From an uncultured cyanobacterium (GTDB taxonomy: Bacteria; Cyanobacteriota; Cyanobacteriia; PCC-9006; JAAUQQ01): a stretch of 64,000 nucleotides of DNA. Positions 35,094-51,897 of this stretch are shown here, one piece after another. Each line of letters opens with the position of its first letter. The first letter of the stretch is position 1. Where the stretch lies: NCBI GenBank assembly GCA_963718615.1, contig OY970368.1:4608001-4672000 (forward strand). Reading direction: 5' to 3'. The notes below the pieces were generated by a model that did no database searches, was not told where the DNA came from, and saw only the letters and a program-made list of their open reading frames with translations. The position numbers were made by a program, and so were the translations under genes.

Positions 35094-36164
35094 TCAATCC
35101 CACTCTGCATACTGCGGCGGATTTGCCCCCACCCGCTGAGTCACCTTGGGATATTTGGCCCTTGCCTGAGGTTTGCCAATTTCCAGGGTTTCGATGTGGT
35201 GCCACCAGTCATCGCCAAAATCGAACCAGTAGCCCCAGGATTCACCGGGTTCTAGGTTAAGATCTGCGATCGCTGTCTTTTTCACCTCCCCAGCGGGCTC
35301 ATCCCTGCTGTGATCCATGGCAACGTTCAAAACATAGCGATCGGCATCGGGATCATTCGGCTTCATCCCTTTCACTTGGAACTCATACAGATGCTCTTCC
35401 TCTCGACCAAAGGCTTGAAACAGAGCGTTGTGCAGCTCGGCCAAGGTCTGATCACCCCGAATTTCGACGGTACGACTAATCTCAGGATTCTTTTTCATGA
35501 AGGCTTCCGTAACGGGACCACTGATAATTGACGCCTTGAGTGTGTAGAGAATCTTGGCAGCGGTGCTTTTGGAAGTTGCTTTTTGGGGAGTCGTGTTTTT
35601 CTGAATCGAAACGCCACTATCCAGCAATTGCAAAAACACATCGCTATCGTCTTTGTGCCCTGGAATATAGGGAATCATCCCTTTTCTGTAAGCCTCCACT
35701 TGAGCACCGATGGGGGCATCGCGGATATCCATGATGAAGCCATTGACCGACAACATCCAAGCCATGGGATTGTCATTCATGCGGCTGGGCACGGTCCAGT
35801 TGGGGTCCATCTGATGTATCTTCAACAGATCTCGAACCGTTTTGGATTTCCCCTGGCCGGTGCTGCTGCCCACGCCAAACCATTGGTAGAGTTCTGTGGC
35901 GCTGAGGTGGGGGTCAAAGCTGGAATCGAACAGGAAGTTGACCATGCCGATGGCGTGGCTGATGCCGCAGGCCCAGGTTTTGTCGTGGCCTTTGTCGAGG
36001 GGGGAGGGGCGTTTGCGACAGAGGGCGGCGGTGGCGGAGCGGATCAGTTGGGCGTATTCGTCGTTGAGATGGGCTGCGGCAAAGGCGTCGGTGATGGCGG
36101 TGATGCGATCGAACTTCTCCTGCATGGTCTTGGGCACTTGGTCAGACTTGGAGGAGGCAGCCAT
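35094..36164 (-). CDS. DUF6398-like + pRiA4b ORF-3-like protein
   Basis: LCRKRPSPL..G...WACGI...VNFLFD; HLYEF, YWFDFGDDWWH. Confidence 0.75.
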   Translation of the reverse strand: MAASSKSDQVPKTMQEKFDRITAITDAFAAAHLNDEYAQLIRSATAALCRKRPSPLDKGHDKTWACGISHAIGMVNFLFDSSFDPHLSATELYQWFGVGSSTGQGKSKTVRDLLKIHQMDPNWTVPSRMNDNPMAWMLSVNGFIMDIRDAPIGAQVEAYRKGMIPYIPGHKDDSDVFLQLLDSGVSIQKNTTPQKATSKSTAAKILYTLKASIISGPVTEAFMKKNPEISRTVEIRGDQTLAELHNALFQAFGREEEHLYEFQVKGMKPNDPDADRYVLNVAMDHSRDEPAGEVKKTAIADLNLEPGESWGYWFDFGDDWWHHIETLEIGKPQARAKYPKVTQRVGANPPQYAEWD

Positions 36165-36289: not shown

Positions 36290-36691
36290 ATGGCAGATCC
36301 GATGACGGCGGCGGCGATCGCGGGCTTAGCTCTCTCCAAGTTTGCGGAGAGCGGGGCGAGCGAGGCGGCGAAGAAGTTGATTGAGGGTTTGTGGGGGGCG
36401 ATTACAACCCGATTTAAAGGCCGCAAGAAGGCGGAGGAGGCGATCGCCCAACTGGAAGCCAGCCAGGGCAAAGCTCCGGAGGCGGAGGCCAATTTGGTTC
36501 GGGTGTTGGATGCGGAGATGTTTGAGGATGAGGCGTTTGCGGGGCAGGTGCAGCAGTTAGCGCAGCAGATTATCCAGATTCAAAATCAGAATCAAACGCA
36601 GTCTAGCAATACCTTTACGTCGAATGACAATTCGCAGATACGGGCGGTGGGGCAGGTTTATGGGACGGCGAATTTGGGGGATCAGAAATAG
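36290..36691 (+). CDS. Small helical (Bell-like) effector with C-terminal putative amyloid signalling motif
   Basis: Amphipathic helical N-terminus, Q/N linker, C-terminal motif matching the NLR N-terminus at 37554. Confidence 0.7.
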   Translation: MADPMTAAAIAGLALSKFAESGASEAAKKLIEGLWGAITTRFKGRKKAEEAIAQLEASQGKAPEAEANLVRVLDAEMFEDEAFAGQVQQLAQQIIQIQNQNQTQSSNTFTSNDNSQIRAVGQVYGTANLGDQK

Positions 36692-36894
36692 CGGGCTTTG
36701 GGCTTGGCAATTTTGAGAATGGCGATCGCCTGCTCTCGTTTCACGCTCGGAAAATGGTCCAGAAACTCGCTCAGCGGGTCCCCGGCTGCGAGGTAATCGA
36801 GCAGGTTTTTCACCGGCACGCGAGTGCCAACAAAGACAGGAGTTCCGCTTAAAATGCCAGGGTCGCTGTGAATGACTGAAGAAAGAGTAATCAT
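36682..36894 (-). CDS. DUF433 antitoxin-like protein
   Basis: HSDPGILSGTPVFVGTRVPV. Confidence 0.8.
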   Translation of the reverse strand: MITLSSVIHSDPGILSGTPVFVGTRVPVKNLLDYLAAGDPLSEFLDHFPSVKREQAIAILKIAKPKARYF

Positions 36895-37000
36895 GGCCGC
36901 TGGGCTCATTACAAGGATTTGGGTGTCGAAGCTCGATCGTAGCTGATTTTATGGGGATGGGTTGATGGCTGGGAAACCGACCAATCAGTTTGAATCCTAC
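36861..37000 (+). repeat. Diverged duplication of 37437..37590 (DUF433 start + NLR start)
   Basis: gtgaatgactgaagaaag and aaaccga.caatcagtttgaatccta occur in both copies. Confidence 0.75.
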
Positions 37001-37074
37001 GGCCGCTGTTGTGAACGGTCCCAAGCCGTCGGTTATCCTAGATATGAGCCCGTACCATCATTGCTGCTCAAGAT

Positions 37075-37365
37075 ATGACTCCTCAACTCGCAACGGCGAT
37101 CGCAGCCACTCAACCCCTTTCCCTCCTGGAATTGACGCAGCTCATCAGTATCCTCGCCAGCAACCTGCACAAAATCCAGGCGCTGGAGGCAGAGAGTGTC
37201 GCTTTTTGGAGCAATCCATCGTTGGCAGATCTGAGCCAAGCCCAATCCGCACCTCTTTTTCTTGGTCTCCAGACCGTTGCGGGTGATCTTTGGCCGGAGG
37301 AAGAATCCATTGATAACTTCCTCAGTTCTCTGCAAGAACAACGCCAATCGGACGTGGCCGCATGA
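37075..37365 (+). CDS. Hypothetical antitoxin-like protein
   Basis: DLWPEEESIDNFL C-terminus; following gene apparently deleted. Confidence 0.55.
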   Translation: MTPQLATAIAATQPLSLLELTQLISILASNLHKIQALEAESVAFWSNPSLADLSQAQSAPLFLGLQTVAGDLWPEEESIDNFLSSLQEQRQSDVAA

Positions 37366-37553
37366 CCAAGATGACGATGGAATCAGTAATTTAAGGATTC
37401 TGACCAGGGCCTAGCCAACCGTGCGGATTATCCACAGGTCGCGGTGAATGACTGAAGAAAGATTAATCATTGCCGTTAGTCAAATCGCGAGGATTTGGCG
37501 CAGGGGTTTGGGTGTTACAGGTTGGTCGTAGCTGATTTTGTGGGGTAGGGTGA

Positions 37554-38198
37554 GTGGCTGAGAAACCGAACAATCAGTTTGAATCCTATGACCAGTCGCA
37601 GATGCGGGCGGTGGGGGAGGTGCATGGCGATGCTTATTTGGGGGATCAGCACCATCACCATGGCGGCCCAGAAATCACCGTTTCTGGGGTGGGGGACTCG
37701 CCGCCCAATTTCCAGGACTATTGGGTGGAGCGGCGGGTTTATCAAGCTGCTCTGATCGATCGCCTCGACCGTCACCCGGCCACCGAAATCGTCGCAGAGG
37801 GTGGCTTTGGCAAGTCGTCTTTGGCGGCTTGGGCACATCAGCATTTGCAGAATTCGTTTCAAAAACGCATTTGGGTGAGACTGCAGCAGGACAAGCAGCA
37901 GGACAAGAGCTTTGACCGGGTGGCGCGCTGGATTTTGCAGGAAATTGGCTTCCCAAACAAAGACCCTCGGGCGGATGGGGAAACGCTGCTGCGGGAGTTG
38001 TGCTATCGGCTGAATGACCCGAATCGACCGGTGAAGGCGCTGGTGGCGTTGGCGCTGGTGGAGCAGGTGGCGGAGACGCAGGATTGGGAATGGTTTGAGC
38101 GGTTTCTGGAGGCGTGGGCGCGGCAGGGGAAGCTAAGTCGGGTGTTGGTGACAACGCGGCTGTCGGTGTTGGCGGAGGAGCCGATCCTTCTGTTTTGA
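37554..38198 (+). pseudogene. N-terminal part of NB-ARC/STAND NLR-like protein
   Basis: P-loop AEGGFGKSSLA, sensor SRVLVTTR; truncated at the insertion. Confidence 0.8.
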
Positions 38199-38231
38199 TT
38201 GTCTAGGACTGTCGGGCAGAAATCAGTAGAA

Positions 38232-38399
38232 ATAAGGAAGCTGCAACGCACTGAAGGTGAGCTTCTATGTGGAGACAGAAGCTTGTTCTTGAACTGCGAG
38301 ATGGGTCAAGACGGCGCTCACTTCGGTCACACCCATGTCCTTGGTATGGCGTTTGTTGTGAAACAGGAGGTAGCGCCGAATCCACTGAACGTAAGTTCG
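38232..38399 (-). pseudogene. intI: Integron integrase N-terminal (SAM-like) fragment
   Basis: Manual translation TYVQWIRRYLLFHNKRHTKDMGVTEVSAVLTHLAVQEQASVST*. Confidence 0.75.
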
Positions 38400-38825
38400 T
38401 AAGTTTGTTATGTAGACACCCGGATTCGATGGTAAAGATTGTGTGATTTTCTACGCCGACTTAAATGAGGTGATTATACTGAGGTACTACGCAATAATAC
38501 TCAAATCGAGGCGTTATCCAGCAACTGTGCCGAGATAACGCTTTGAGAGGGGTAGTTATCATGAAGTCTTGCCTAGTAATATCCAACCAGGGGTGTTACC
38601 CAGGGTGATTGCATTGATAAGAGGCTGGAACTAGGGGTTATAAATCGCTCGTTATACGGTGCGAGTTCTGAACCTTTCTCGACCAGGTTAGCTGAACGAG
38701 TAGGTGGGCACAATCAATGTGAACAGAGATTCCCGAACCACAAAGGTTTCAGGCTTTCTTGTTTAATACTTATTTGCGCCGACCGACCTACCATCTTCAC
38801 GGAAGCCCCGTAAGGATAGACAATA

Positions 38826-39731
38826 ATGTCAACTGGGAAGCCCTTAGAGATCGATTACTCTCAACCAGATTCAACTTCAACATTTGCCCCACGCCCACGC
38901 ATTCATTCCAGTCAGCAAGCAGGATGGAAAAATATTCATCTGGCACACTATCAAATGCCTGCAATGGAAATCCCTGAAACGATGAGTGTTCAGCACATCA
39001 TCGCCCTGCCGTTTGTTAAATGTCAAACAGTGCAAGAATTAGTTTTTGATGGGAAATGTTATCAAACACAGCATGATCAAAAGGATATGGGATGTATTGC
39101 TATAATTCCTGCTGATGCACCGTTTAGCGCTAAGTGGAATCGAGAGTCCGGCGTGACTCATTGCTATCTTGATCCAACATTTGTCGCCCATGCTGCCTAT
39201 GAGTCGATCAACTTAGAACAAGTTGAGCTGAATTTGGTGATTCAAAAAACTGATCTGCTCGTTTGCCAAATTGTCTTAGCTCTACAACAGGTATTGGAAA
39301 CCGATGCAACGAACAGTTGCTTTTATGCAGAGTCAATGGCTACGGCTCTAGCAGCCCATTGTTTAAGAACATATTCAACTCGCAAGCTCGTTCTACAGAA
39401 GTACGAGGATGGCTTACCGAAGTACAAACTGAAGCAAGCTCTTGAATACATGAACGTTCATCTGAGTGAGAATGTATCATTAGCATCTGTTTCTGAAGAA
39501 GTACAGATCAGCCAATTCCATTTCTGTCGATTGTTTAAGCAGTCAACTGGAATGACTCCCCACGCGTATTTGATTCAGCAACGAGTTGAGCGAGCAAAAC
39601 AACTTCTCAAAAGGAAAGAGGGCAGCATGCTCGATATTGCTATTGAGTGTGGCTTTGCTAATCCGAGCCACTTTGCCAAGCATTTTCGGAAACATACAGG
39701 CATTTCGCCGAAGCAGTTTCGGATGTTGTAG
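38826..39731 (+). CDS. AraC-family transcriptional regulator
   Basis: SQFHFCRLFKQSTG...IAIECGFANPSHFAKHFRK. Confidence 0.92.
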   Translation: MSTGKPLEIDYSQPDSTSTFAPRPRIHSSQQAGWKNIHLAHYQMPAMEIPETMSVQHIIALPFVKCQTVQELVFDGKCYQTQHDQKDMGCIAIIPADAPFSAKWNRESGVTHCYLDPTFVAHAAYESINLEQVELNLVIQKTDLLVCQIVLALQQVLETDATNSCFYAESMATALAAHCLRTYSTRKLVLQKYEDGLPKYKLKQALEYMNVHLSENVSLASVSEEVQISQFHFCRLFKQSTGMTPHAYLIQQRVERAKQLLKRKEGSMLDIAIECGFANPSHFAKHFRKHTGISPKQFRML

Positions 39732-39833
39732 CAAGAATGTGTCGCGATCGCAAGAATATATTCGCCTTAAGAAGTAAAGCATATTAAAGTTATCTAAGTT
39801 ACGTAATAACACTTGTGAACAACTTGTAAGGAG

Positions 39834-40160
39834 ATGTACTTCATGTCTATTAGTAATAGTGTTGTTGATGGAATGATGCCAGAGTTTGATCCTACAAATC
39901 CAGATGCCGACTACGGTGATGTAGTTCGCGCTGGTGGTGACGCAATTCTGAACGCTGTAACAGGTGGTGCTGCAGGGAATGCCTTTTCACAAGGTGCTCA
40001 AGGAATCGAGGATTTGAATGAGTTCACCGATAATGCTTTTACGGCTGAAAGTATTGTAGCGATGACCGAGGATGTTGCACCCGTAGTTGAACAGTTTAGT
40101 GAACAGGTATCAGAAGGTGCAAGCGATTTGGTGGAAAACGTGTTTGGTGGACTTTTTTGA
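39834..40160 (+). CDS. Acidic hypothetical protein
   Basis: AGGAG RBS; downstream of AraC gene. Confidence 0.6.
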   Translation: MYFMSISNSVVDGMMPEFDPTNPDADYGDVVRAGGDAILNAVTGGAAGNAFSQGAQGIEDLNEFTDNAFTAESIVAMTEDVAPVVEQFSEQVSEGASDLVENVFGGLF

Positions 40161-40334
40161 TTCTAAAAAGGGAAAAAGAGCAGCTAGTACTCTGGGGCTG
40201 AAATATCCAGACTATCTCTTCTCGTGCAGACCATACTGAGTCAGAAGCCAGAGAAAGAACTGGTCAAATGACTTCCGCCACCGAGTACTAGTCGCTTAGA
40301 CACTCATCCTATATTAAATTCTTAGGTTATTAAA

Positions 40335-41414
40335 ATGCTTGAGAAATATACTCCTATGGCACAGGATTGCTTTTCAACGCCAGCATGTAACGAGGAAAAT
40401 GCTTCACTGATGACTGATAGCTCTGAGGCAGACGGACAACTGGTTGGCAATACTCCTGTAAATTCACAACCAATTACTTCTCAAGAAGGTTCAACTCAGC
40501 CTGATCATCCTTTCCAGGCTAGGAAAGCACTTCAAGGGTTTAGCGGAAATTTGGTAAAAGGAGTTTGGCAGCTTAGTGGTGACGTTGCTGGGAAAACAAC
40601 AGAAATTGGTAGTAAAGTTGCTCAATCTGCTACTAAATTAGGGCAAGAAGCAGTTCAATCCGTGACAGAACTTAGGCGAGAAGCAATTCAATCTGTGACA
40701 GGATTTACTCAAGAAGTCGCTGAATCCACAGCCAAACTAGGGCAAGAAGCAACTCAATCAGCACTTTCTCAAGAGGCAGTCCAAGATGCTCTGCTACTGG
40801 TTGGAGGAAATACTCACGCTTCACAAGTTGCGAAGGAAGCTTCAGTTGAGGCGTATGTAAAGCAAGTCAATTTGAGCAGAGTCCAAAAGTTTGTTGTTGC
40901 TCTGAAAGAGAAGATTTCGACAAAAAATCTGGAAGAACTGTCCCAACAAATTGTGGTTCAGCAAACTCTCCGAATTACCGGAAATTCTGCCGCACTGAGT
41001 CTCATCCCAGGAAAATTAGTCGAGGCAATGGGCTTTGATCAGGCTTCGCTCACTCTGGCACAAGCTGAAATCATTTACCAAATTGCTGATGTATATGGGC
41101 TGGAGTTAAAGACTCCATCACGCAGAGAGGAAGCCTTCGCAATTTTTGATCGGACTTTCAGAATGGCTAGACAAATGAAGATGTCCATGAATCTGGGAGT
41201 TGTTCCAACGCTTCCGATCGTTGGTGGGCTTTTAAGTGCAATCCCAATTTTGGGAGGTGCTTTAAATGTAGGGAGTGATGCGTTTTTAATCTCTCTAACT
41301 GGAGATACAGCCTGCTATCTTTACAAAACAATTGCAGAGGAGAAGGTGGCTGGGGAAACTCTCAAGAGTTTTAAGCAGGAAACGCAAACACGGTATAAGC
41401 AACGTTTGTGGTAG
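40335..41414 (+). CDS. Hypothetical protein (EcsC/DUF697-like C-terminus)
   Basis: 11-aa helical repeats, then QAEIIYQIADVYG and a Gly-rich hydrophobic segment. Confidence 0.55.
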   Translation: MLEKYTPMAQDCFSTPACNEENASLMTDSSEADGQLVGNTPVNSQPITSQEGSTQPDHPFQARKALQGFSGNLVKGVWQLSGDVAGKTTEIGSKVAQSATKLGQEAVQSVTELRREAIQSVTGFTQEVAESTAKLGQEATQSALSQEAVQDALLLVGGNTHASQVAKEASVEAYVKQVNLSRVQKFVVALKEKISTKNLEELSQQIVVQQTLRITGNSAALSLIPGKLVEAMGFDQASLTLAQAEIIYQIADVYGLELKTPSRREEAFAIFDRTFRMARQMKMSMNLGVVPTLPIVGGLLSAIPILGGALNVGSDAFLISLTGDTACYLYKTIAEEKVAGETLKSFKQETQTRYKQRLW

Positions 41415-41441
41415 TAAACCTAATTTTTTTGTTCAGGAGCT

Positions 41442-41831
41442 ATGGATATGGACTGGTTAGAAAGTTTGTTTGAGTGGCTTAGCGATGTCTTGGATGCTAA
41501 TGCTGATGGCGCAGTCACCTTTAATGATATTACAGATGGAATCAGCGATGTAGTAGAAACAGTGACTGACTTTGCCGATCAAGATAATTCTGGGGTAATC
41601 AATTTTAATGATGCATCCAGTTTGGTTCTTAATTTCATCGATAAAAACGGATCTAGACAAATTGATTCAGAGGACTTTCAGCAGTTATTATTTGGTGTTT
41701 TTGACAAAAATGGTGATGGTCAGTTTACTTCAATTGATGTAACACTACGAAAACTTGCCGCTGAGGTAGGAGAGAATTTTGGACCAGCAGCTAGATTGGC
41801 TTTTCTCAACACTGCGAAAAATTTACTTTAA
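41442..41831 (+). CDS. EF-hand calcium-binding protein
   Basis: Four loops DANADGAVTFND, DQDNSGVINFND, DKNGSRQIDSED, DKNGDGQFTSID. Confidence 0.85.
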   Translation: MDMDWLESLFEWLSDVLDANADGAVTFNDITDGISDVVETVTDFADQDNSGVINFNDASSLVLNFIDKNGSRQIDSEDFQQLLFGVFDKNGDGQFTSIDVTLRKLAAEVGENFGPAARLAFLNTAKNLL

Positions 41832-41904
41832 CTTAACCTGAGCAAGTTAGATTTTGCTCGTTGAAAAGTAAATTGCAAATAAAGTGGGATGTTTCGGAAG
41901 CACG

Positions 41905-41992
41905 ATCTAGCAACGTCCATTCACACCGATCGTCGAAAAATGATCGGTTTAATGCAGAGTCTATCTGCAGCGGGTGATGGGCACCGTTAGAC
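41905..41992 (+). other. attC-like recombination site
   Basis: ATCTAGC...GTCCATTCACACCG / CGGGTGATGGGC...GTTAGAC imperfect stem with extrahelical bases. Confidence 0.55.
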
Positions 41993-42064
41993 CACTGAGT
42001 TACCTGTTGGGGTGTAGCTAGAACGTTATTGCAAGTTGTAACTTCAGTCTTCAAATAGGAGTGA

Positions 42065-42814
42065 ATGCTTATGCTACCTCTCGTAGTGAATTTGAATTTG
42101 AGCGGCAGTGTAGGACAGGGTGGAAGAAACCATTCTCAAGATGTTCTCACTGTCAAGAATCGATTGGCTGATTTGGGTTATCCAGTTACCAGAGATGCGA
42201 TCGTCAACTCTGAAACTATTGCCATCATTAAACTATTTCAATCGATTATTAAAGGAGAGACAATAATTGTTGGAGATGGCAGAATTGACCTAAATGGTCC
42301 TACACTCAAATTTTTACAGGCGACAAATGCGCCTCAATGGTTAGAAATGCCAAAGGGAGATGCTTCTGAAGGTTTTATAAATCATGACGAACGTCAGAGA
42401 GATAATCATGATTTCGGTACAAATTGGGTGGTTGAAACCATTCAGGCTGCGGCTCAAATCTATCTGACCACTCATCTTTCTAGCCATCCAACAGCAGCCT
42501 TGATTCAAACTAATGACTTAAGTAAGCCAAAGGGAGGTTCTACACCAGTCCATGCAACTCATCAGACTGGTTTGTCATGTGATCTTCGACTACCTCGTAA
42601 AGATGGCCAAGCAGGTGGCATTGTATTCAGTGATTCTCGGTTTGATCGGGATGCAATGAGAGCAATGCTTCAAGCTATACGCAATCAAAACAAGTACAAA
42701 ATCAAGCGTATTTTCTTCAACGATCTTACATTGATTGCTGAAGGTCTCTGTAAAAATGCACCGGGTCATGACAATCATGTGCATCTTGATATCATTCCCC
42801 CTCAACCACAGTAG
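42065..42814 (+). CDS. PG-binding + MepA-like (LAS) murein endopeptidase
   Basis: SVGQGGRN, DLSKPKGG..HATHQTGLSCD, HDNHVHL. Confidence 0.75.
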   Translation: MLMLPLVVNLNLSGSVGQGGRNHSQDVLTVKNRLADLGYPVTRDAIVNSETIAIIKLFQSIIKGETIIVGDGRIDLNGPTLKFLQATNAPQWLEMPKGDASEGFINHDERQRDNHDFGTNWVVETIQAAAQIYLTTHLSSHPTAALIQTNDLSKPKGGSTPVHATHQTGLSCDLRLPRKDGQAGGIVFSDSRFDRDAMRAMLQAIRNQNKYKIKRIFFNDLTLIAEGLCKNAPGHDNHVHLDIIPPQPQ

Positions 42815-42914
42815 ATGCTTATGGGAATAGGCTTTTAGAGATTTTAGCTGATTTACAACAGCATAGTGGCAACCTTTAATTTGTTCTGTAATTACTCTGA
42901 TAGGAGTCAAATCA

Positions 42915-44588
42915 ATGGCACTTCTTTCTCTTGGTTCATCCGGTACTGAAGTTCGTAAGTTACAGGAAAAACTCATTAAATTAGGTTTTTTGAGTTCAGC
43001 AGCTTCAGGGAGTTTTGATGCAACGACAGAATCCGCAGTTAAAGATTTTCAAACTCAGCATCCGTGGTTACTGACGGATGGTGTTGTCGGGCCGATGACG
43101 TTGGGTGAGATTGGTGATTCGATTTCAGTGCTTGATGGACAAGTTGCCTTGAAAGCATTTGCTGCGGGTTCCGCTTCTCTAGATATGGCATCCCTCAGGG
43201 CGAACTCCCTATTAAGTTTGGCAATTCAGAGACGGTTACGAGGGTTAGGTTTATACCCAGGTGGAAAATTGATTGATGGTGATTTCGGACAAAATAGTCA
43301 AGCAGCACTCGAGAATTTTTGTGATAAAGTCGCCCCTCCAGTTACTTCGCCCTTGCAACTGACTCCTTCAATCGCAGATAAGCTATTAACCACTCAGCAA
43401 ATTTCCTCAGTCTTGGATAATGTGCAAAATACTAGTGTTATTGCAACAATATTCAAAGACTTTCAGAAGGCGGTTGGAGCCAATGATGCCAAACTGGGAT
43501 TCCTAGACATGGGGGCACAACAATCTCCATTTAAGGAAACGATCTATCGTGGTAAAGATTTTTTAGCGGCAACAAAGTCAGCAGGAATCCAGAGTAGCTC
43601 GCCTGGGATACTCAGCTTTTCTAGTTATCCGAATATTGGAACTGCACCAACGATTGCCGCTAGCAGTTTAAATTTCTTAGGGTCTGACATTACAGAAGCC
43701 TGTTTGTGTGTGGGGCATTTCGATGGGGGGCAGCTAACCACAAGCTGGTTGGGCAAAGAAGCACTTGATCTGGTTGAGTGTTGGAGCGCCAGTAAAATCA
43801 TCCCCATGCTGAATGTTCTGTGTAAAGTGGGAGATCGAGTTCCCAGCGATCCGAGCGACTTGATTCTGAAGAATACAGGCAGTACGGGACGACAATTTGA
43901 ACTTTCTAATGCACTAGTTGATATCTGTTCCTATAGAGTGGATGTTTCTCACTCCAATGCTTTGTCTGCAACTTTGAATTCTTTTGAAAGTAATCGACCA
44001 AGATGGATCAAAAATCAAACTGGTAATGCCAAGGCAATTCAGTTTGGTGGAAAATATGGGATTACGGCAACAATTGGAGTGCCAGAAATTCGTGATCGTT
44101 CCAGCAACAGCCAAATCTTAAGTTTTCAATCGACTGCTACTGGAGGGAATTTAATTTCTGCTTATGACTTAACAAGGTTTATTTCCTTGGTCGGGTGGCA
44201 CGGACTACTATCTAATACGCAGAAATTACCTGGTATTTCAGATCGAGGTCTCGATCAAGCCGTCATTGCGTTCGGTACCGATACTGCACGATATGTGGAT
44301 ACAGCAATTTCAACACTTGGTCTTGAAAATGTGGTGGATTCCCTTGTTGTTCTTTCTAAATTGGGCTTTGGCCCCTCCCCGACCCGTGGTGTAACAGAGT
44401 TGGTTTATACCGCATTTGCTCAATTTGTTGACAAACAAGATCCAATAAATCAAAAGCTCAGAAGTTTTTCTTTAACATTGCGTAGCAGTAAACCTTCAGT
44501 AAACGGTGTAGGGATTAAATTAGATACGGCGATAGCTACCGCTGTTACAGAAATTGTTCGGCGGATTGTAACCGAAGATTTTTCTTAA
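42915..44588 (+). CDS. Two PG-binding domains + serine beta-lactamase/PBP-like domain
   Basis: GSSGTEVRKLQ..DGVVGPMT; IDGDFG; WSASKII (SxxK); SKLG. Confidence 0.7.
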   Translation: MALLSLGSSGTEVRKLQEKLIKLGFLSSAASGSFDATTESAVKDFQTQHPWLLTDGVVGPMTLGEIGDSISVLDGQVALKAFAAGSASLDMASLRANSLLSLAIQRRLRGLGLYPGGKLIDGDFGQNSQAALENFCDKVAPPVTSPLQLTPSIADKLLTTQQISSVLDNVQNTSVIATIFKDFQKAVGANDAKLGFLDMGAQQSPFKETIYRGKDFLAATKSAGIQSSSPGILSFSSYPNIGTAPTIAASSLNFLGSDITEACLCVGHFDGGQLTTSWLGKEALDLVECWSASKIIPMLNVLCKVGDRVPSDPSDLILKNTGSTGRQFELSNALVDICSYRVDVSHSNALSATLNSFESNRPRWIKNQTGNAKAIQFGGKYGITATIGVPEIRDRSSNSQILSFQSTATGGNLISAYDLTRFISLVGWHGLLSNTQKLPGISDRGLDQAVIAFGTDTARYVDTAISTLGLENVVDSLVVLSKLGFGPSPTRGVTELVYTAFAQFVDKQDPINQKLRSFSLTLRSSKPSVNGVGIKLDTAIATAVTEIVRRIVTEDFS

Positions 44589-44615
44589 TTAAAGATAACT
44601 GGAGGATGTAAGGCG

Positions 44616-45542
44616 ATGAATTTTAGAGTGATTTCGGCAGGGCTTAATATCCGTTTATCTGGAGTTGTGGAACCCAACAACATCATTACAGTATTACCTC
44701 AGAATCAAATCGTTACGCGAATTGGTAATGAATCTGACAGTGATAGGTGGTGGCAAGTGAGAACTACTTTAATGGGGCGTATTATTGAGGGATTCGTGAA
44801 CAAATCCTTCCTAGCTAGCCTTCTACAAACAACTGAAAAAGTTTTGTGGGTTGTGAACTATCCTAGCTTAGAGTGGTTTATAGACCGTGCAACCTTTATT
44901 AAAGCAACAGCTGTTGCAATCCGAACAGATAACGATATGGAAACTGCCATTTCTGCTTTTCATGCTAAAGGCATTAAGGTCTACGGTTGGCGCTGGCCTT
45001 CTGCACAGCGAGATCGTGCTTTAAAGGAAGCGAACAGAGTAGTTGAACTATTGAGTAGAGGCTTAGATGGATATTATGTAGATCCTGAAGGTGAAGAAGG
45101 AAAGCATTATGATTGGGATCAACCTGATTTAGAGACAACAGCTGAAGAGTTTTGCCAGAAAATTACGATAGCTTCACCTGGTAAACCATTTGGGACAACA
45201 TCCCACTTTAGAGGAGAAAAAGTATTTAGCAAATTGCCCTGGAAGGTCTTCATAAAATACTCTAATGTATTACTACCACAAGCTTACTGGCGGGTTAAGC
45301 AAGGAACAGTCAGTGGCGGCAATCCGCAGAAAAACTATCTTACAGCGATTGATGAATGGCAATCGATTGGTGGATCTAGAAATTTAATAGTCCCAATGGC
45401 TGGAGAGCTTGAACATGTCAATGGAGCAGAAATTGAGAGTTATGCAGAAGTCGCGAAAGCGCAAGGAGTAAGTAGTCTACATTTCTATACAGCAACAAAG
45501 ACTACGAAATCGGAAGTTTGGAAGGCAGTCGCAAACTTGTAA
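44616..45542 (+). CDS. SH3b + putative glycoside hydrolase (TIM barrel)
   Basis: LNIR...WWQV...EGFV; DGYYVDPE, LPQAYW. Confidence 0.65.
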   Translation: MNFRVISAGLNIRLSGVVEPNNIITVLPQNQIVTRIGNESDSDRWWQVRTTLMGRIIEGFVNKSFLASLLQTTEKVLWVVNYPSLEWFIDRATFIKATAVAIRTDNDMETAISAFHAKGIKVYGWRWPSAQRDRALKEANRVVELLSRGLDGYYVDPEGEEGKHYDWDQPDLETTAEEFCQKITIASPGKPFGTTSHFRGEKVFSKLPWKVFIKYSNVLLPQAYWRVKQGTVSGGNPQKNYLTAIDEWQSIGGSRNLIVPMAGELEHVNGAEIESYAEVAKAQGVSSLHFYTATKTTKSEVWKAVANL

Positions 45543-45598
45543 ATTACATAGTAACAACGGTCTTAATTCATCTATAGAAAATCAAGAGGTATTCAGGA

Positions 45599-46369
45599 AT
45601 GGTCACTTTAAAAGTTAAGCCAGAAAGTTTAAATCTGCGCAAGGCTCCAGAAATTAAGGATGGAAATATTATTGCCTCACTACCAATGGCACAGGAAGTG
45701 GAAACATTGACAAATAATCCTTCTGATCGTTTCTGGCAAGTCAAAACCCAAGTTAATGGATCGACGCTAGAAGGTTTTGTTAGTGCGGCTTTTTTGAGAG
45801 TACCTGTTAGTCTTGCTAAAGAGAAACTTATTAGTTCATCTGTAAAAGAGTGGCTAAGATTTTCTCGTGGCAATAAGCTGGAATTTGAGGATCCTCAATA
45901 CAAGTACGTTGGAGAATACTGGACTAGCATTGGTTTGAATTTCGATGGTAAAGATCGAGACCAACCTTGGTCAGCAGCATTTATTTCCTTTGTTGCTCGT
46001 GCTGCTGGTTATAGTGAATTTAAATTTGCACCTGCTCACTCAACCTATGTCTATGATGCAGTGGACAAAAGGCAGAGGAATATCACAACAGCACCTTTTT
46101 GGGCTTTTGATGTTAATGATCATAAACCTCAGCTAGGTGATCTAGTTTGCCGAACACGTGATGGGGTTAGTATTGCTTCGATAGCTAATTTACCCAGAGG
46201 AGGCTTTAAGAGTCACTGTGACATTATTGTCGAAATTCAAGATTCAGAAGTACGAACATTAGGCGGTAATGTTAGTCAATCTGTTTCAATCACGTCATAT
46301 CCATTGGATGATGATGGTTTCTTGAGAAAAGTGAATAATGTATATGGAATTTTGAAAAATAATCTATAA
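45599..46369 (+). CDS. SH3b + DUF2272/CHAP-like amidase
   Basis: PWSAAFIS, GDLVC, SHCDI, GGNVSQSV. Confidence 0.8.
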   Translation: MVTLKVKPESLNLRKAPEIKDGNIIASLPMAQEVETLTNNPSDRFWQVKTQVNGSTLEGFVSAAFLRVPVSLAKEKLISSSVKEWLRFSRGNKLEFEDPQYKYVGEYWTSIGLNFDGKDRDQPWSAAFISFVARAAGYSEFKFAPAHSTYVYDAVDKRQRNITTAPFWAFDVNDHKPQLGDLVCRTRDGVSIASIANLPRGGFKSHCDIIVEIQDSEVRTLGGNVSQSVSITSYPLDDDGFLRKVNNVYGILKNNL

Positions 46370-46945
46370 ACGATCTGGATCAAAAACATGGAACTTTATG
46401 TAGTTCAAGCGACCAGCCTTAATGTTCGTTCATTGCCTAAAGTAGAGGAGAATAATAAAATTGCATCTATTCCTCAAAATCATGTGGTCTCCAAACTTAA
46501 CACCACTGAAGGAGATGCTTGGTGGAAAATTTTAACTATCAAAGATGGGCAACCCTTGGAAGGTTATGTCGCAAGTCGATTTCTAGAAGCAGCACCTAAG
46601 CGAATTCGAGCGATTGGCTGGTTTAAGGAACAGTTTCGAGATCAGATAAATGCTGCCATTTCAGGCACTCCCTTTAGCTTGGATCTATTAGTTGCGATCG
46701 CGATGCAAGAAACGTATTACATTTGGGGAAATGTGTATAGCACGAGCTCGCTTAATGAGGTACTGAAACTCTGTACTGGAGATACTCTAGATGCTCCCAA
46801 TCGATCTGCATTTCCAAAAAATAAAGTAGAATTATTAGCTCGCGAAAAGGGAGATGAGATGTTTGCGATCGCTCGTGAAGCCTTGGAAGCAGTTGCTAAC
46901 TTTGTTCCTTCGTTTAAGCGTGTAGCAGATTCTTCTCCAAATAAG

Positions 46946-47850
46946 GGTAGTGCTTTTATGTAAAGGATAAAGAAAAACAGAGTGAAGCAGTTGTAGTCAA
47001 TAGGAGCTGAAGATAAAGGGAAAGAAGGGAAAACTGTTGTAGAAACGAGGAGCGGTTGTAGGAGAAAGGAAAAGATGACCATAGAACGTACTTGCCCGAC
47101 CTGTGGCTCCCACGACATTTCCAAGAACGGCACAACCCGCCGAGGCAAACAAAACTACAAATGCCGAGACTGCAACCGACAGTTTGTCGAAGACCCCCAG
47201 TGGAAGCCGAAAGACAAAGACACCCAGAGTTTGATAGACCTGCTGCTGCTAGAGAAAATTCCCCTGGCAGGGATTGCTAGAGCAACGGGCGTTTCGAGTA
47301 GCTGGCTGCAAGATTACGTCAATGAACACTATAAGGCGGTGCCCCAAAAGGCAGAGGTACTGCCCAAAGCGAAAGGAAGGCTGAGGGTGCAAATGGATGA
47401 GCTATGGTCCTTTGTGGACCATAAGGGCAACAAGCAATGGGTCTGGATAGCTTTGGATGCGAACACCCGAGAGGTGATTGGCTGCCACATCGGCGACCGC
47501 TCCCGAGCATCAGCCGTGGCGTTATGGCAATCCTTACCGTCGGTGTATCGGCAATGCGCCACGGTCTATACGGATTTTTGGGAAGCCTACGAGAGTGTGA
47601 TTCCAGCGCAGCGTCATCGTGCCGTCAGCAAAGACAGTGGGTTGACGAGCTACATCGAAAGGTTCAACAACACCCTGAGGCAGAGGGTTTCGCGCCTAGT
47701 GAGAAAAACCTTGTCTTTCTCCAAGAAGCTGGACAACCATATCGGTGCAATTTGGAATTTCATTCATGAGTACAACCGTCTAATCAGAGAAAAGATGCTG
47801 AACAACCAGCCCAATGATATTTTCTCCATCCTTTACTAAAGGGGACTACC
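46946..47850 (+). mobile_element. IS1-family element (905 bp), 8-bp TSD CAAATAAG
   Basis: TIRs ggtagtgcttttatgtaaaggat / atcctttactaaaggggactacc. Confidence 0.93.
47075..47839 (+). CDS. IS1 transposase (single ORF)
   Basis: Zn ribbon CPTC..CRDC, DELWSFV, TDFW, IERFNNTLRQR. Confidence 0.93.
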   Translation: MTIERTCPTCGSHDISKNGTTRRGKQNYKCRDCNRQFVEDPQWKPKDKDTQSLIDLLLLEKIPLAGIARATGVSSSWLQDYVNEHYKAVPQKAEVLPKAKGRLRVQMDELWSFVDHKGNKQWVWIALDANTREVIGCHIGDRSRASAVALWQSLPSVYRQCATVYTDFWEAYESVIPAQRHRAVSKDSGLTSYIERFNNTLRQRVSRLVRKTLSFSKKLDNHIGAIWNFIHEYNRLIREKMLNNQPNDIFSILY

Positions 47851-48234
47851 CAAATAAGTTCTGCCGAGGTTATGGCATCTTTCAACTCGACTTGCAGTTC
47901 TTCAAGAACAACCCTGATTATTTTCTTCAAAAGAAGTGGTACAGCTTTGATGAGTGCCTCGCTCAGTGTGTTAACGAACTAAAAGCAGCCATGAGACGCG
48001 CTTATGGTAGCGGTAAAACGGCATTAACCGATGAAGAAAAAGTCTATGCCGCGATCGCCTACAACCAAGGGAGTGTAGACTTCTCCAAAAAGTTTAAGCA
48101 GGGTTTTCGAGATCAAAGTGGCAAGTATTATGGTGAGTACATTTGGGAATATCTACAGCTTGCTAAGTCGGTACCTTAAGTCTTGATGTGTATAAAGTAA
48201 CCCATGAGCTATCGCGGTCCAATCGGGATAGGGA

Positions 48235-48456
48235 GTGCGATTCGTTGCAGACGAATAACGGTGCAAGCCTGTAAATAACTCTGCCAGCTTGGCTTCCAAA
48301 GATGAAGCACTCCAAAGAGCTGAACTGTCCTAATGATGAGGGTGAAAGCCCCTTCCATCAAACTCGGATGTGACTCCTGATCTGCCCACGATGACCCGAC
48401 TCGGAATTCGGGAAGTCGAAGCTGGGAGCAGGGCGCAATCAGACACTCATAGCAAG
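48235..48456 (+). ncRNA. Group II intron 5' fragment (domain I), copy A
   Basis: Starts GTGCGATTCGTT, contains GGGTGAAAGCCCC; similar to 58554 copy; no RT ORF. Confidence 0.6.
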
Positions 48457-48620
48457 GGACGGAGAAGAACGATGCCACGCTAGAGGAACGAGGAGAGCAA
48501 CTGCACCAGACAACCGGAGTGCTGGTTGGGCGTACAACAGTAGACCGTATGGTGAAGAAGCTAGGATATACCGTCAAAAAAACACTACACGCGACAGAGA
48601 AAGCGAGTGAACGAGTCTAA
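48457..48620 (+). pseudogene. IS630-family transposase fragment
   Basis: NDATLEE...TVDRMVKKLGYTVKK followed by an A-run and TLHATEK. Confidence 0.65.
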
Positions 48621-48882
48621 TTCTTCTAATTTCACTCTATTAAATGCTGCCTCTAACGAAACATGGACTGGCAGTTGTAATTGGAGAGGTATTGGTGTTC
48701 AAATAAATGGTAGCTCAAGCATAACATTCGTGATTTGGTTATTTTTAGAGGTGCTTCTACTATTTCGCTGAAAGCTCATAACCCCCCCAAAATCTTTGTG
48801 CAATTCTGCATCACCCTCTTTTGCCCTGTTAAGAAAGAGTGATGCTATCCTTAGTGATAAAAGCCTTCGAGGATAGAATACA

Positions 48883-49092
48883 ATGAAAAGTCGTAGCTTC
48901 ACAGTCATTCTTCACAAAGAAGATGACATGTACATTGCTGAATGTCCAGAAGTTGGGACGGTTGATCAGGGGGAAACGATCGAGCAGGCGATCGCGGGTT
49001 TGAAAGAGGCAACGCGGCTCTACTTAGAAGAATTTCCCCTCCCTGAAACATCTCCTAGACTTGTAACCAGCATTGAGGTCAGCTATGCCTAA
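48883..49092 (+). CDS. hicB: HicB-family antitoxin
   Basis: YIAECPEVGTVDQGETIEQAIAGLKEA. Confidence 0.85.
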   Translation: MKSRSFTVILHKEDDMYIAECPEVGTVDQGETIEQAIAGLKEATRLYLEEFPLPETSPRLVTSIEVSYA

Positions 49093-49312
49093 GATGCCAC
49101 GGGTCTCAAGCAGAGAAGCGATTCAGGCACTTGAGCGATTAGGGTTCGAGCAAGTTCGTCAAACAGGCAGTCATATTGTGATGAAGAAAGAAACTAAAGA
49201 GGGCAAAATTGGCTGCGTTGTGCCTATGCATCGGGAATTGAAGGTTGGTACGTTGAGCGGCGTTCTCAAGCAAGCGCAAGTCACAGTCGAAGAGTTCATT
49301 GAGAGTCTATGA
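49085..49312 (+). CDS. hicA: HicA-family toxin
   Basis: LERLGF..VRQTGSHI, VPMHRELKVGTL. Confidence 0.85.
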   Translation: MPKMPRVSSREAIQALERLGFEQVRQTGSHIVMKKETKEGKIGCVVPMHRELKVGTLSGVLKQAQVTVEEFIESL

Positions 49313-49579
49313 GGTCTTATCCCTGAACCTTCATCCAGAGGTTCCGACTTGAAAGCAATCCTTAAACCCAGGGCTCATTTTTAGGAAACCCACTGAAGGG
49401 GTTCAGTCGCGCTGATCTGCTCAAAGACCCTGGCTGGGAGCTGGCTTGAGTTCCTTTCGTGAAGGGTTTAGATTAGCCTGGGGTTTTCAACCTCGGGCGA
49501 TCGTGAGGTGCAATTCGTCAATCTTGATGCCGTCTGACTGATGTCGAACTCACGTTAACTCAGAAATCGGCCCATACAA

Positions 49580-50659
49580 TTGGGGGCGGGGTTGTGGGGC
49601 AAGGGGTTGCTGTTGGCGGAGGGGGAGCGGTTTTCGTTGCACCCGTTGGTGAAGGAGTTGGTGGTGGCACGGTTGCCGCAGCAATTGCAGCAGCAGGCCC
49701 ATGAACGGGCGATTGACTACTACAGCGCTCATTTCCAAGCCTGGGATGGAACGATCGAGAGCTGCCAAGCGGAGCTAGAGGGCTTTTATCATGCCTGGGA
49801 GCTGGGGCAGTATGGGCGGGCCAAGGGGATGCTCGATCGCTGCGTTAATCAGCTCGATCGCGCAGGCTACTGGCGGGAGCTGCGAGGGCTGTATGAGCAA
49901 CTCACCACGACCTGGCAGCCTGAGGACGACGACGCGACCCAAAACCTCGGCTGGGCTTGGACAAGGTTGGGGAATTTGCAGCGGCGGTTGGGGGACGTGG
50001 CGCAATCCATCGACAGCCACCACCAAGCCCAGGCCCTGTTCGATCGCCTAGACTTCGCCCCAGGCAAAGCCGCCGCCCTCAGCGGTCTCGGCCTTGCGTA
50101 CGACTCCCTCGGGGACTATCAACGGGCGATCGACTTCCATTCTCAGAACCGGGAACTGGCGGAGGCAATCGGCGATAAACGTGGCATTGCGAATTCCCTC
50201 GGCAATCTCGGCAATGCGTACTACTCCCTCGGGGACTATCAACGGGCGATCGACCTCTATTCTCAGCACCGGGAACTGGCCGAGGCGATCGGCGATCGAA
50301 ACGGAGCAGCGAGGTCTTACTTCAACCTCGCCCAAGCCCAAGCCAAACTCGACGACCACTGGGCCGCCAAACAAAACCTCGAACAAGCCAAAGCCATCTT
50401 CACCGCCCTCAAACTCGATCACATGATCGAGAAATGCGACCAAGCCATCCGCGAACGCAACCAAATCATCGCCGCCACCCCTCGCCGCGTCCCCACCCTC
50501 GGCGAACCCGCCGAACCCGCCCTCCCCGACTAGTGGGAAAAATCCCTCCCCGCCAACGAAAATAAACCACGCCCCTCCTCCTCCAGCAAAACTCCAGTGT
50601 GGTTCTGGTTCGTCGTCGGCATTGGGATTGTAGCTTTGGTGTGGTGGCTAAAGCGCTAG
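49580..50659 (+). pseudogene. C-terminal part of NLR-like protein (winged helix + TPRs + TM tail); amber at 50531-50533
   Basis: FSLHPLV, TPRs LGNLGNAYYSLGDYQRAID; frame continues PD*WEKSLP...WFWFVVGIGIVALVWWLKR. Confidence 0.75.
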
Positions 50660-50875: not shown

Positions 50876-50892
50876 CAATGCGAAATAAAACA

Positions 50893-51213
50893 ATGGATAC
50901 CCAAACCCTCCGAACTGCCATCAAGCAAGTCCTAAATCAATACGCTCGATACGTGCCCTCCCACGGAAAAATCCGCCTCGAAACCGTCTTTGATACCGAG
51001 CAAGATCGCTACGCCCTCATGCAAACCGGTTGGAGCCAAAAGCATCGCATTCGAGGCAACCTGATTTACATCACGCTTCAAGACGATAACGTAATCATCG
51101 AGTACGACGGAACCGAACAAGGCATCAGCGATGATCTCCTCGCCTGTGGCATCCCTTCAGAAAAAATCATCTTTGCGTTCCTGGTCGAAGAACCCCTCGC
51201 CCTTGTTGGCTAA
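50893..51213 (+). CDS. xisI: XisI family protein
   Basis: FDTEQDRY, IEYDGTEQGI..DLL..GIP..KI.FAF. Confidence 0.85.
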   Translation: MDTQTLRTAIKQVLNQYARYVPSHGKIRLETVFDTEQDRYALMQTGWSQKHRIRGNLIYITLQDDNVIIEYDGTEQGISDDLLACGIPSEKIIFAFLVEEPLALVG

Positions 51214-51511: not shown

Positions 51512-51897
51512 AACTCCTCCTCGACACCCACATCTGGCTCTGGTACCTCCTCGGCAATCCCCAGCTTTCCATCACGCTTCAAAACACCATTGCCTCACCC
51601 GAAACCGAACTCTAGCTGAGCCCCATCAGTCTCTGGGAAACCCTCGTGCTCGCCGAGAAAGGGCGGATTACCTTACAACCTGACCCTGAAGCATGGGTGG
51701 ATCAAGCACTGGCAATACTTCCGGCCCGAGAGGCGACTCTGAACCATGCGATCGCCCGCCTTAGCCGCCAGCTTGAGCTACCCCACCAAGATCCAGCGGA
51801 TCGCTTCCTAGCTGCGACCGCCATCCATTACGGCTTGACCCTGGCCACTGTAGACAGAACTCTGGTCAATGCTCCGGGCTTGCAAACCATCAGTTGA
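51508..51897 (+). pseudogene. VapC PIN toxin with amber stop at 51613-51615
   Basis: MKLLLDTHIWLW...ETEL*LSPISLWE...HQDPADRFLAATA. Confidence 0.85.

Follow-up and report, generated by a model that had tools for sequence, protein, structure and literature searches.

A probable Bell/BASS-type effector and NLR module in decay in the genome of an uncultured cyanobacterium

Amyloid-relay signalling from NLRs to pore-forming effectors connects bacterial, fungal and animal cell-death pathways, and to our knowledge its role in cyanobacteria has never been tested. We analysed a locus with the layout of such a relay in a 64,000-nucleotide (nt) stretch of DNA from an uncultured cyanobacterium (assembly GCA_963718615.1, contig OY970368.1, positions 4,608,001 to 4,672,000), the whole of which is called the window below. 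The locus comprises the gene of a small effector of 133 amino acids (aa) and, downstream on the same strand, the gene of an NLR with an NB-ARC domain, and a short tag at the C-terminus of the effector is matched at the N-terminus of the NLR. We interpret it as a probable Bell/BASS-type module of two cyanobacterial genes that is decaying. Feature coordinates are collected in Table 1.

The closest described systems are the Bell/BASS/NLR pairs reported by Dyrka et al. in 2020 from multicellular Actinobacteria and Cyanobacteria (bioRxiv 10.1101/2020.01.06.895854), and this kind of pair is thus already known, cyanobacteria included. The available part of that preprint distinguishes ten BASS families, four of them specific to cyanobacteria, besides 44 pairs that fall outside the families, and gives fibrils and prion behaviour for BASS1 and BASS3. 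In the same text the first helix of Bell domains is hydrophobic and comes after an acidic residue at position 2 or 3, the BASS motifs are enriched in N, Q and G and depleted of K, P and L, 57% of the collinear pairs are no more than 10 bp apart, and occasional Bell-NLR fusions are reported. A further pair, Bab/Agp (BASS11), is an antiphage abortive-infection pair of E. coli and, going by the accessible portion of its description, the only case in which phage defence and membrane damage have been shown (Ibarlosa et al. 2024, bioRxiv 10.1101/2024.11.07.622273). Fungal HET-S/NWD2, with a HeLo effector, the HRAM motif and a NACHT-WD NLR, has the same logic and gene layout, the tail of the effector being templated by the head of the NLR.

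The shared tag and the effector

The effector ends in NTFTSNDNSQIRAVGQVYGTANLGDQK, and the open reading frame (ORF) of the NLR (37554-38198, plus strand, 214 aa, GTG start) begins with MAEKPNNQFESYDQSQMRAVGEVHGDAYLGDQ. Effector residues 107-132, the 26 residues before the terminal K, align without gaps to NLR residues 7-32. By our own count 17 of the 26 are identical, the figure given in an earlier note on this DNA, and BLASTP (17/30 identities, 22/30 positives, E 3e-9) aligns this stretch of the two proteins and no other, in keeping with that note's view of them as otherwise unrelated. At the DNA level the two copies (36607-36685 and 37571-37649, repeat family D2) are 75% identical over 79 nt. 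A hidden Markov model (HMM) was built from 25 distinct tags of the class to which this one belongs, termed class A, and compared with the 144,477 six-frame segments of at least 25 aa from the 6.1-Mb single-contig genome. It picked out the effector and the NLR only (E 1.2e-18 and 6.8e-16; next match E 0.24), so the tag is confined to these two genes in the genome and the match between them is real and above chance. The class-A pattern is F-x-S-x-D-x-SQMRAVG-x-V-x-G-x-A-x-LGDQ; by count, N, Q and G fill 10 of the 26 positions of the tag, with no K, no P and one L. Prediction of a complex of two effector tails (residues 98-133) and two NLR heads (residues 1-40) scored 0.02 against a mark of 0.32, which is no answer either way.

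As marks of a Bell/BASS-NLR pair we took a gapless shared motif of at least 15 aa, a collinear NB-ARC or NACHT gene with TPR or WD repeats within 5 kb, and an effector of about 120-140 aa whose N-domain, of about 100 aa, is helical, with a hydrophobic first helix and, ahead of that helix, an acidic residue as the second or third of the protein. At this locus the motif is gapless over 26 aa, and the NB-ARC gene, although split in this copy, lies 862 nt downstream on the same strand. The effector starts with MADPMTAAAIAGLAL, that is, MADP with its acidic third residue, leading into a hydrophobic helix. The gene layout of Bell/NLR pairs, already recognised in the earlier note, is therefore borne out, as the tail of a helical effector of about 130 aa, some 26 aa long, is matched by the head of a linked NB-ARC/TPR protein. 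In the pairs of Dyrka et al., as far as the preprint text at hand describes them, a C-terminal motif of about 25 aa likewise recurs at the N-terminus of an NB-ARC/TPR protein whose gene is linked and collinear. The window tag has the same N/Q/G-rich, K/P/L-poor bias as theirs, and the host, a filamentous-group cyanobacterium, resembles those in the paper, in which Leptolyngbya and Pseudanabaena are named. The window pair differs in its 862-nt gap, which holds a convergent DUF433 gene where 10 bp or less is usual, and in its NLR, which is a pseudogene with intact orthologues that carry a putative C-terminal transmembrane anchor.

The other systems are more distant. Bab/Agp likewise combines a small, helical effector related to Bell with a sensor encoded next to it, and the tag at the effector C-terminus recurs at the N-terminus of that sensor; the effector has 109 aa as against 133 in the window, the host is a proteobacterial prophage island, and the likeness drawn here is one of layout. 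HET-S has two pseudorepeats where the window effector has a single tag copy, and the NOD and repeat types of NWD2 differ from those of the window NLR. The HeLo family (PF14479) had no match on the window effector at E <= 1, and its best match on a relative (P0022, E 0.031) reached 14.5 bits against a cut-off of 23.2. RHIM, the fungal PP motif and BASS3 are, like the window tag, short amyloid-type signalling tags with a G and Q core. Their core G-phi-Q-phi-G is absent from the window tags, in which the effector has VGQVYG (G-Q-V-Y-G) and the NLR VGEVHG (G-E-V-H-G), and neither RHIM nor Ses_B gave a Pfam match on the window proteins at E <= 1.

The effector gene has no lesion. An AlphaFold2 model with 54 homologues as input (mean predicted local distance difference test score, pLDDT, 71.5) has five helices, at residues 7-15, 25-41, 46-57, 63-79 and 81-108, and agrees with the small helical effector of the earlier note; from residue 104 onwards the tail has pLDDT below 50. 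Homologues number 60 at E <= 0.001, the nearest being 94% identical, and the N-domain is 57-94% identical across class-A relatives. The family consensus starts MxEP.T, with P4 and T6 conserved at 90% or more. Neither Pfam, NCBIfam nor PADLOC contained a family matching the effector. Foldseek of the model against the PDB gave a best match of E 1.6, and VIA-align against 48,161 chains a best Z of 5.4 with a root-mean-square deviation of 3.4 Å over 78 residues, which is within helical-bundle noise; no HeLo, MLKL or Bab-like match was seen in these fold searches, which are uninformative about the fold. The effector-family profile found nothing below E 0.2 among PDB sequences.

Among 1.84 billion proteins the same profile reached 485 representative clusters at E <= 1e-3, most of them 120-160 aa long. 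In ten longer representatives that were scanned the N-domain precedes NB-ARC (1), TIR (2), CHAT (2), TPR (3, one of them weak), GUN4 (2) or nothing recognisable (1), P0170 being counted under both CHAT and TIR, and the cluster names of 10 representatives are all "hypothetical protein" or blank. HetE-N (PF20701) was considered as a family for the effector and rejected. Precomputed matches exist on 4 of the 60 homologues, and our own scans of the window protein and the four flagged relatives gave none at E <= 1. This family is annotated on 24% of the members of one neighbouring Atlas cluster; at its cut-off of 25 bits a whole-genome scan had no match at the effector/NLR locus, and our literature search found no paper describing HetE-N or PF20701.

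Pairing and tail exchange in relatives

Pairing was examined at 25 loci, 23 from public genomes and two from this genome, by aligning the last 35 residues of each effector to every frame of its locus. The relatives come from Leptolyngbya-like, Alkalinema, Nodosilinea, Phormidesmis and Pseudanabaena assemblies and from one metagenome-assembled genome labelled Actinomycetota; the 30 relatives searched include no close strain from the genus of the host itself. At 13 of the 25 loci the effector tail best matches the first residues of the frame immediately downstream (score 47-86). Three more (L013, L015 and L023) have the same best match at scores of 35-41, which overlap the background, and the remaining nine have scattered matches only (23-36); of these nine, six have long acidic tails, two run into a contig edge and in one the effector is truncated. 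The matched downstream frames contain a P-loop pattern in 14 of 16 cases. When 16 tails were scored against 16 heads the matrix was block-diagonal, the scores of class-A tails being 54-91 for heads of their own class and 13-38 for the rest, and the other tag classes behaved as class A does. Co-variation of the motif between adjacent genes in other genomes, on which the earlier note had staked its reading, therefore holds at the level of the tag class. At L011 the NB-ARC region is 71% and the effector 78% identical to those of the window, yet both L011 proteins carry the class-B tag.

By pattern, the tails of the 60 homologues fall into class A (31), C (12), B (9), E (4), D (2) and F (2), so that at least six unrelated tails occur on one N-domain; partners were found clearly for classes A, B and C, and at borderline scores only for class E. 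A maximum-likelihood tree was built from 58 N-domains with refined tail patterns, two rows shorter than 120 aa, both class A, having been dropped. On this tree the tail classes need 11 changes against a minimum of 5, and two class-B proteins have a class-A protein as their sister (support 99/96). From these two observations we conclude that tails have been swapped as cassettes and that the receptor head follows.

Verified class-A pairs are those of the window, L010, L012 and L016, the last three being the intact effector-NLR pairs that the earlier note had proposed to look for in relatives. A class-A tail is also linked to a class-A head on a metagenome contig of run X8, one of four runs (X1, X2, X5 and X8) whose contigs, from related organisms, were aligned at 80% likeness; no run contained more than 0.18 of the sampled words. 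The effector P0032 and the intact class-A NLR P0062 may be a fifth pair, judged solely from their both having a longest contig of 121,401 nt. The NLR is intact in P0061, P0062, L012, L015 and L016, and the count of class-A NLRs is a lower bound, the search of longer proteins for the NLR head having given 3 candidates.

The conserved pairs bear on whether the tag match in the window might be a functionless by-product of local DNA duplication. The region is rearranged and contains partial duplications at 81-82% identity, and the resemblance of the two tags extends to their DNA, all of which would suit such an origin. We consider it extremely improbable, and the conserved pairs already contradict it: the tail-to-head match recurs at L010, L012 and L016 and in metagenome contigs, other tag classes have the same pairing, and the tail is the most conserved part of class-A effectors, 11 of the 27 invariant columns in 28 of them lying in the last 25 residues.

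The genome contains further Bell-like genes. At L002 (4382615-4383013 and downstream) a second Bell-like effector, of 150 aa, is directly followed by an NB-ARC-type protein; the two have a different tag in common, GGKQWIA-x-x-Q-x-F (score 78), and the pair looks intact as far as the locus reaches. A third Bell-like gene (L004, 2249907-2250218) adjoins a NACHT gene and gave no tail-to-head match, its best score to the NACHT frame being 30. A fourth copy (L003/L005, 5665202-5665523) is interrupted by a stop or frameshift, with no NLR in its vicinity.

The split NLR and the proposed relay

The NLR ORF is a 214-aa stump of a gene for about 970 aa, a point absent from the earlier note. It retains the Walker A motif (GGFGKSS) and an NB-ARC match (PF00931, E 5.6e-7, 29.5 bits against a curated cut-off of 23.5). 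The intact orthologue P0061 (967 aa) served as the reference map for the remainder. By tblastn, window positions 37563-38186 correspond to P0061 residues 8 to about 213 and 49601-50530 to residues 339-591 (75% identity; aligning also to the last TPR units), and 50534-50653, when the search reads through a TAG, to its last 38 residues, the hydrophobic C-terminal helix included. The N-terminal part is 55% identical to P0061 over residues 8-239. About 125 residues, roughly 214-338, are absent, and these contain the ARC and winged-helix part of the NOD module.

The left breakpoint was located with the X8 contig, which tracks the window to 38186 and then reads ALGGMNVEEG in our translation, at the place where the intact NLR P0062 has ALGGMNIAEG. 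Beyond 38186 the window ORF has three codons (212-214) and a TGA at 38196-38198; since X8 leaves the window at 38186 and continues as an intact NLR, these codons and the stop are foreign DNA. A reading of the TGA at 38196 as a nonsense mutation, with homology extending to about 38267-38279, was dropped because X8, from a relative, diverges exactly at 38186. The GC content falls from 0.56-0.58 to 0.39-0.46 after about 38400, and the tyrosine-recombinase fragment within the inserted DNA occurs at high depth in other contexts. The Walker B aspartate, present in all nine aligned relatives, is an alanine in the window NLR. Separately, the window NLR contains a 12-nt duplication (QQDK, 37887-37898) that is absent from the X1 and X8 contigs and from all aligned relatives.

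What is new for this locus is thus an NLR wrecked by an insertion and further lesions. Because the NLR is cut and truncated, has lost Walker B and has an in-frame stop, and because the tag is found in no third gene of this genome, we regard the module as most likely dead. This copy of the effector and NLR is not an intact immune module; most likely it is non-functional and the effector an orphan. The earlier note had spoken of a cyanobacterial amyloid-signalling immune module. The Bell/BASS layout and the cyanobacterial host remain, the latter marked by 56 occurrences of the HIP1 octamer in the window against 0.97 expected; the module as an intact unit does not, and its amyloid part would hold by analogy only.

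In fungi the isolated N-terminal motif of NWD2 is reported to convert HET-S. A comparable activity could in principle leave the window module active in a reduced form, in which the 214-aa stump is expressed and nucleates the intact effector, for example as a constitutively primed or stress-released trigger. The stump does retain a start codon, the complete tag and Walker A, and the effector, free of lesions, is 94% identical to its nearest relative. We nevertheless hold a reduced activity to be very unlikely, as the Walker B aspartate has been replaced, the winged-helix and TPR parts are gone or 11.4 kb away, and a free nucleating tag next to its effector ought to be toxic to the cell and to be removed by selection.

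The NB-ARC/TPR receptors of this clade look as if they end in a putative membrane anchor. Judged by eye, a hydrophobic run of some 20 residues with R or K after it closes five of six complete relatives (L012, L015, L016, P0061 and P0062; not P0063), and the same hydrophobic C-terminal stretch is seen by eye in the window remnant at 50534-50653. The word "transmembrane" has 0 occurrences in the portion of the Dyrka et al. preprint text that was available (10.1101/2020.01.06.895854), and a literature search on this theme turned up nothing specific. The anchor, if confirmed, would locate the sensor at the presumed target membrane of the effector.

In its intact form, as in the relatives, the module would consist of an NB-ARC/TPR NLR, presumably anchored in the membrane by its C-terminal helix and carrying the 26-residue tag at its N-terminus, and of the 133-aa helical protein encoded just upstream with the same tag at its C-terminus. 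Oligomerisation of the NLR, driven by a ligand, would gather its tags into a cross-beta nucleus, the nucleus would template the tag of the effector, and the templated effector would free its N-terminal hydrophobic helix to attack the membrane, with cell killing or arrest as the outcome. The amyloid fold, the templating, the membrane attack and any role in defence are modelled on BASS1, BASS3, BASS11 and HET-S/NWD2, systems that have been studied by experiment.

The tag might instead be a specific docking peptide without an amyloid state, acting by beta-strand augmentation or co-folding, or serving on both proteins as the recognition site of a further component, for example a protease or a membrane receptor, with no prion-like templating. 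Its cross-beta fold is an assumption by analogy and it is disordered in the monomer model, and with putative membrane anchors on the NLRs of the clade it could be enough that the effector is simply brought to the membrane. Against docking, the tag has the length, composition, position and gene layout of motifs with demonstrated fibrils and prion behaviour (BASS1, BASS3 and BASS11). Unrelated tails have also been exchanged repeatedly on a single N-domain together with a change of partner, as would suit self-templating tags, for which a mutual match is the only requirement. We therefore judge docking unlikely and prefer a decaying Bell/BASS-type module.

Several observations weigh against this preferred reading. 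The cross-beta fold of the class-A tag would follow by analogy only, and the N-domain is termed Bell-like without a match to a Bell profile, no such profile being contained in Pfam, NCBIfam or PADLOC. Elsewhere the N-domain is fused to TIR or CHAT, and since these partners are themselves effectors it could be a targeting or adaptor module and not the killing part. An 862-nt gap with a convergent DUF433 gene is atypical for a Bell/BASS-NLR pair. For L014 and L018-L022, which have longer acidic tails, alignment of the tail to the frames of the locus found no matching neighbour. Within class A the head of the window NLR scores 91 with the tail of L010 as against 84 with its own, and because class-A pairing is not one-to-one, fine-scale co-evolution is not established. 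Lastly, it is a little surprising, unless the effector has some other use, that it has stayed intact and well conserved next to an NLR with several lesions.

As a single example the window locus adds little, because it is broken. The family to which it belongs is more interesting, owing to the cassette-like exchange of tags and the putative membrane anchors of the receptors. It forms a compact natural experiment, with one helical effector domain, at least six unrelated tails and, for the four tail classes that have a partner (A, B and C clearly, E at borderline scores only), a receptor head to match each tail, and offers the material for asking how the specificity and orthogonality of amyloid tags evolve. 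A more tentative proposal, which we would put forward as a possibility only, is that the class-A tag represents an uncatalogued BASS family, limited to Leptolyngbya-like cyanobacteria and borne by tail-anchored NLRs, and that cassettes are replaced in effector and receptor together, making them orthogonal amyloid "address codes" on one chassis.

The spacer and flanking genes

The DUF433 gene between effector and NLR is found in the same position at L016 (Alkalinema), where it is 80% identical, and in the X8 and X5 metagenome contigs, so the arrangement is older than this strain. The remainder of the spacer contains a partial duplication, positions 36861-37004 being 81-82% identical to 37437-37593. 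The first copy has a second NLR start, with an ATG at 36965 and 12 codons (MAGKPTNQFESY) before unrelated sequence follows. Between the repeat copies lies a cassette of about 600 nt. In the X8 and X5 contigs, which come from two different studies, 36950 or 36908 is joined directly to 37555 and the cassette is skipped; in X1 and X2 it is present. A degraded second DUF433 start is visible at about 37400-37470 on the minus strand.

Table 1. Coordinates of features in the effector/NLR region of the window.
Feature	Position	Strand	Basis
Effector gene, intact, 133 aa; Bell-like helical N-domain (residues 1 to ~103) and disordered tail	36290..36691	+	ORF, AlphaFold2, homologues
Effector-side tag, class A (residues 107-132)	36608..36685	+	BLASTP, tblastn coordinates
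DUF433 gene, 75 aa, convergent, overlapping the last 10 nt of the effector gene	36682..36909	-	PF04255, E 7.5e-18
Partial duplication, first copy: DUF433 5' end, spacer, truncated second NLR start	36861..37004	+	Repeats D1, D3
96-aa ORF inside the ~600-nt cassette between repeat copies; no family match	37075..37365	+	Pfam, NCBIfam, PADLOC
NLR N-terminal fragment (tag, Walker A, first part of NB-ARC), native residues 1-211	37554..38186	+	NB-ARC match, P0061 alignment, X8 contig
NLR-side tag, class A (residues 7-32)	37572..37649	+	BLASTP, repeat D2, tblastn, tag HMM
Inserted mosaic DNA, ~11.4 kb, splitting the NLR	38187..49600		GC drop, Pfam matches, breakpoints
Tyrosine-recombinase fragment, SAM domain, 41 residues	38274-38396	-	E 1.1e-8
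AraC regulator, peptidoglycan-binding, M74-like peptidase, DUF2272 and SH3 genes, EF-hand protein	within 38187..49600		Pfam
IS1-family transposase	47075-47839		Pfam
HicA toxin gene and upstream gene in HicB position	48883-49312		Pfam
NLR C-terminal fragment: end of NOD module and three TPR units	49601..50530	+	P0061 alignment; TPR_12 E 1.7e-24
In-frame TAG (50531-50533), then remnant of NLR C-terminus with hydrophobic tail anchor (putative)	50531..50653	+	tblastn to the last residue of P0061

Upstream of the effector a divergent gene (35094-36164, minus strand) encodes DUF6398 (E 5.8e-43) and a PRiA4_ORF3-like domain (E 1.7e-21). Directly downstream of the NLR remnant lie XisI-family and PIN-domain genes (50878-51213 and 51646-51897), and the neighbourhood of the NLR is rich in toxin-antitoxin and mobile-element debris. 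Along the 64-kb window blocks with a GC content of about 0.40-0.46 alternate with blocks of 0.52-0.60, which suggests several islands of foreign DNA.

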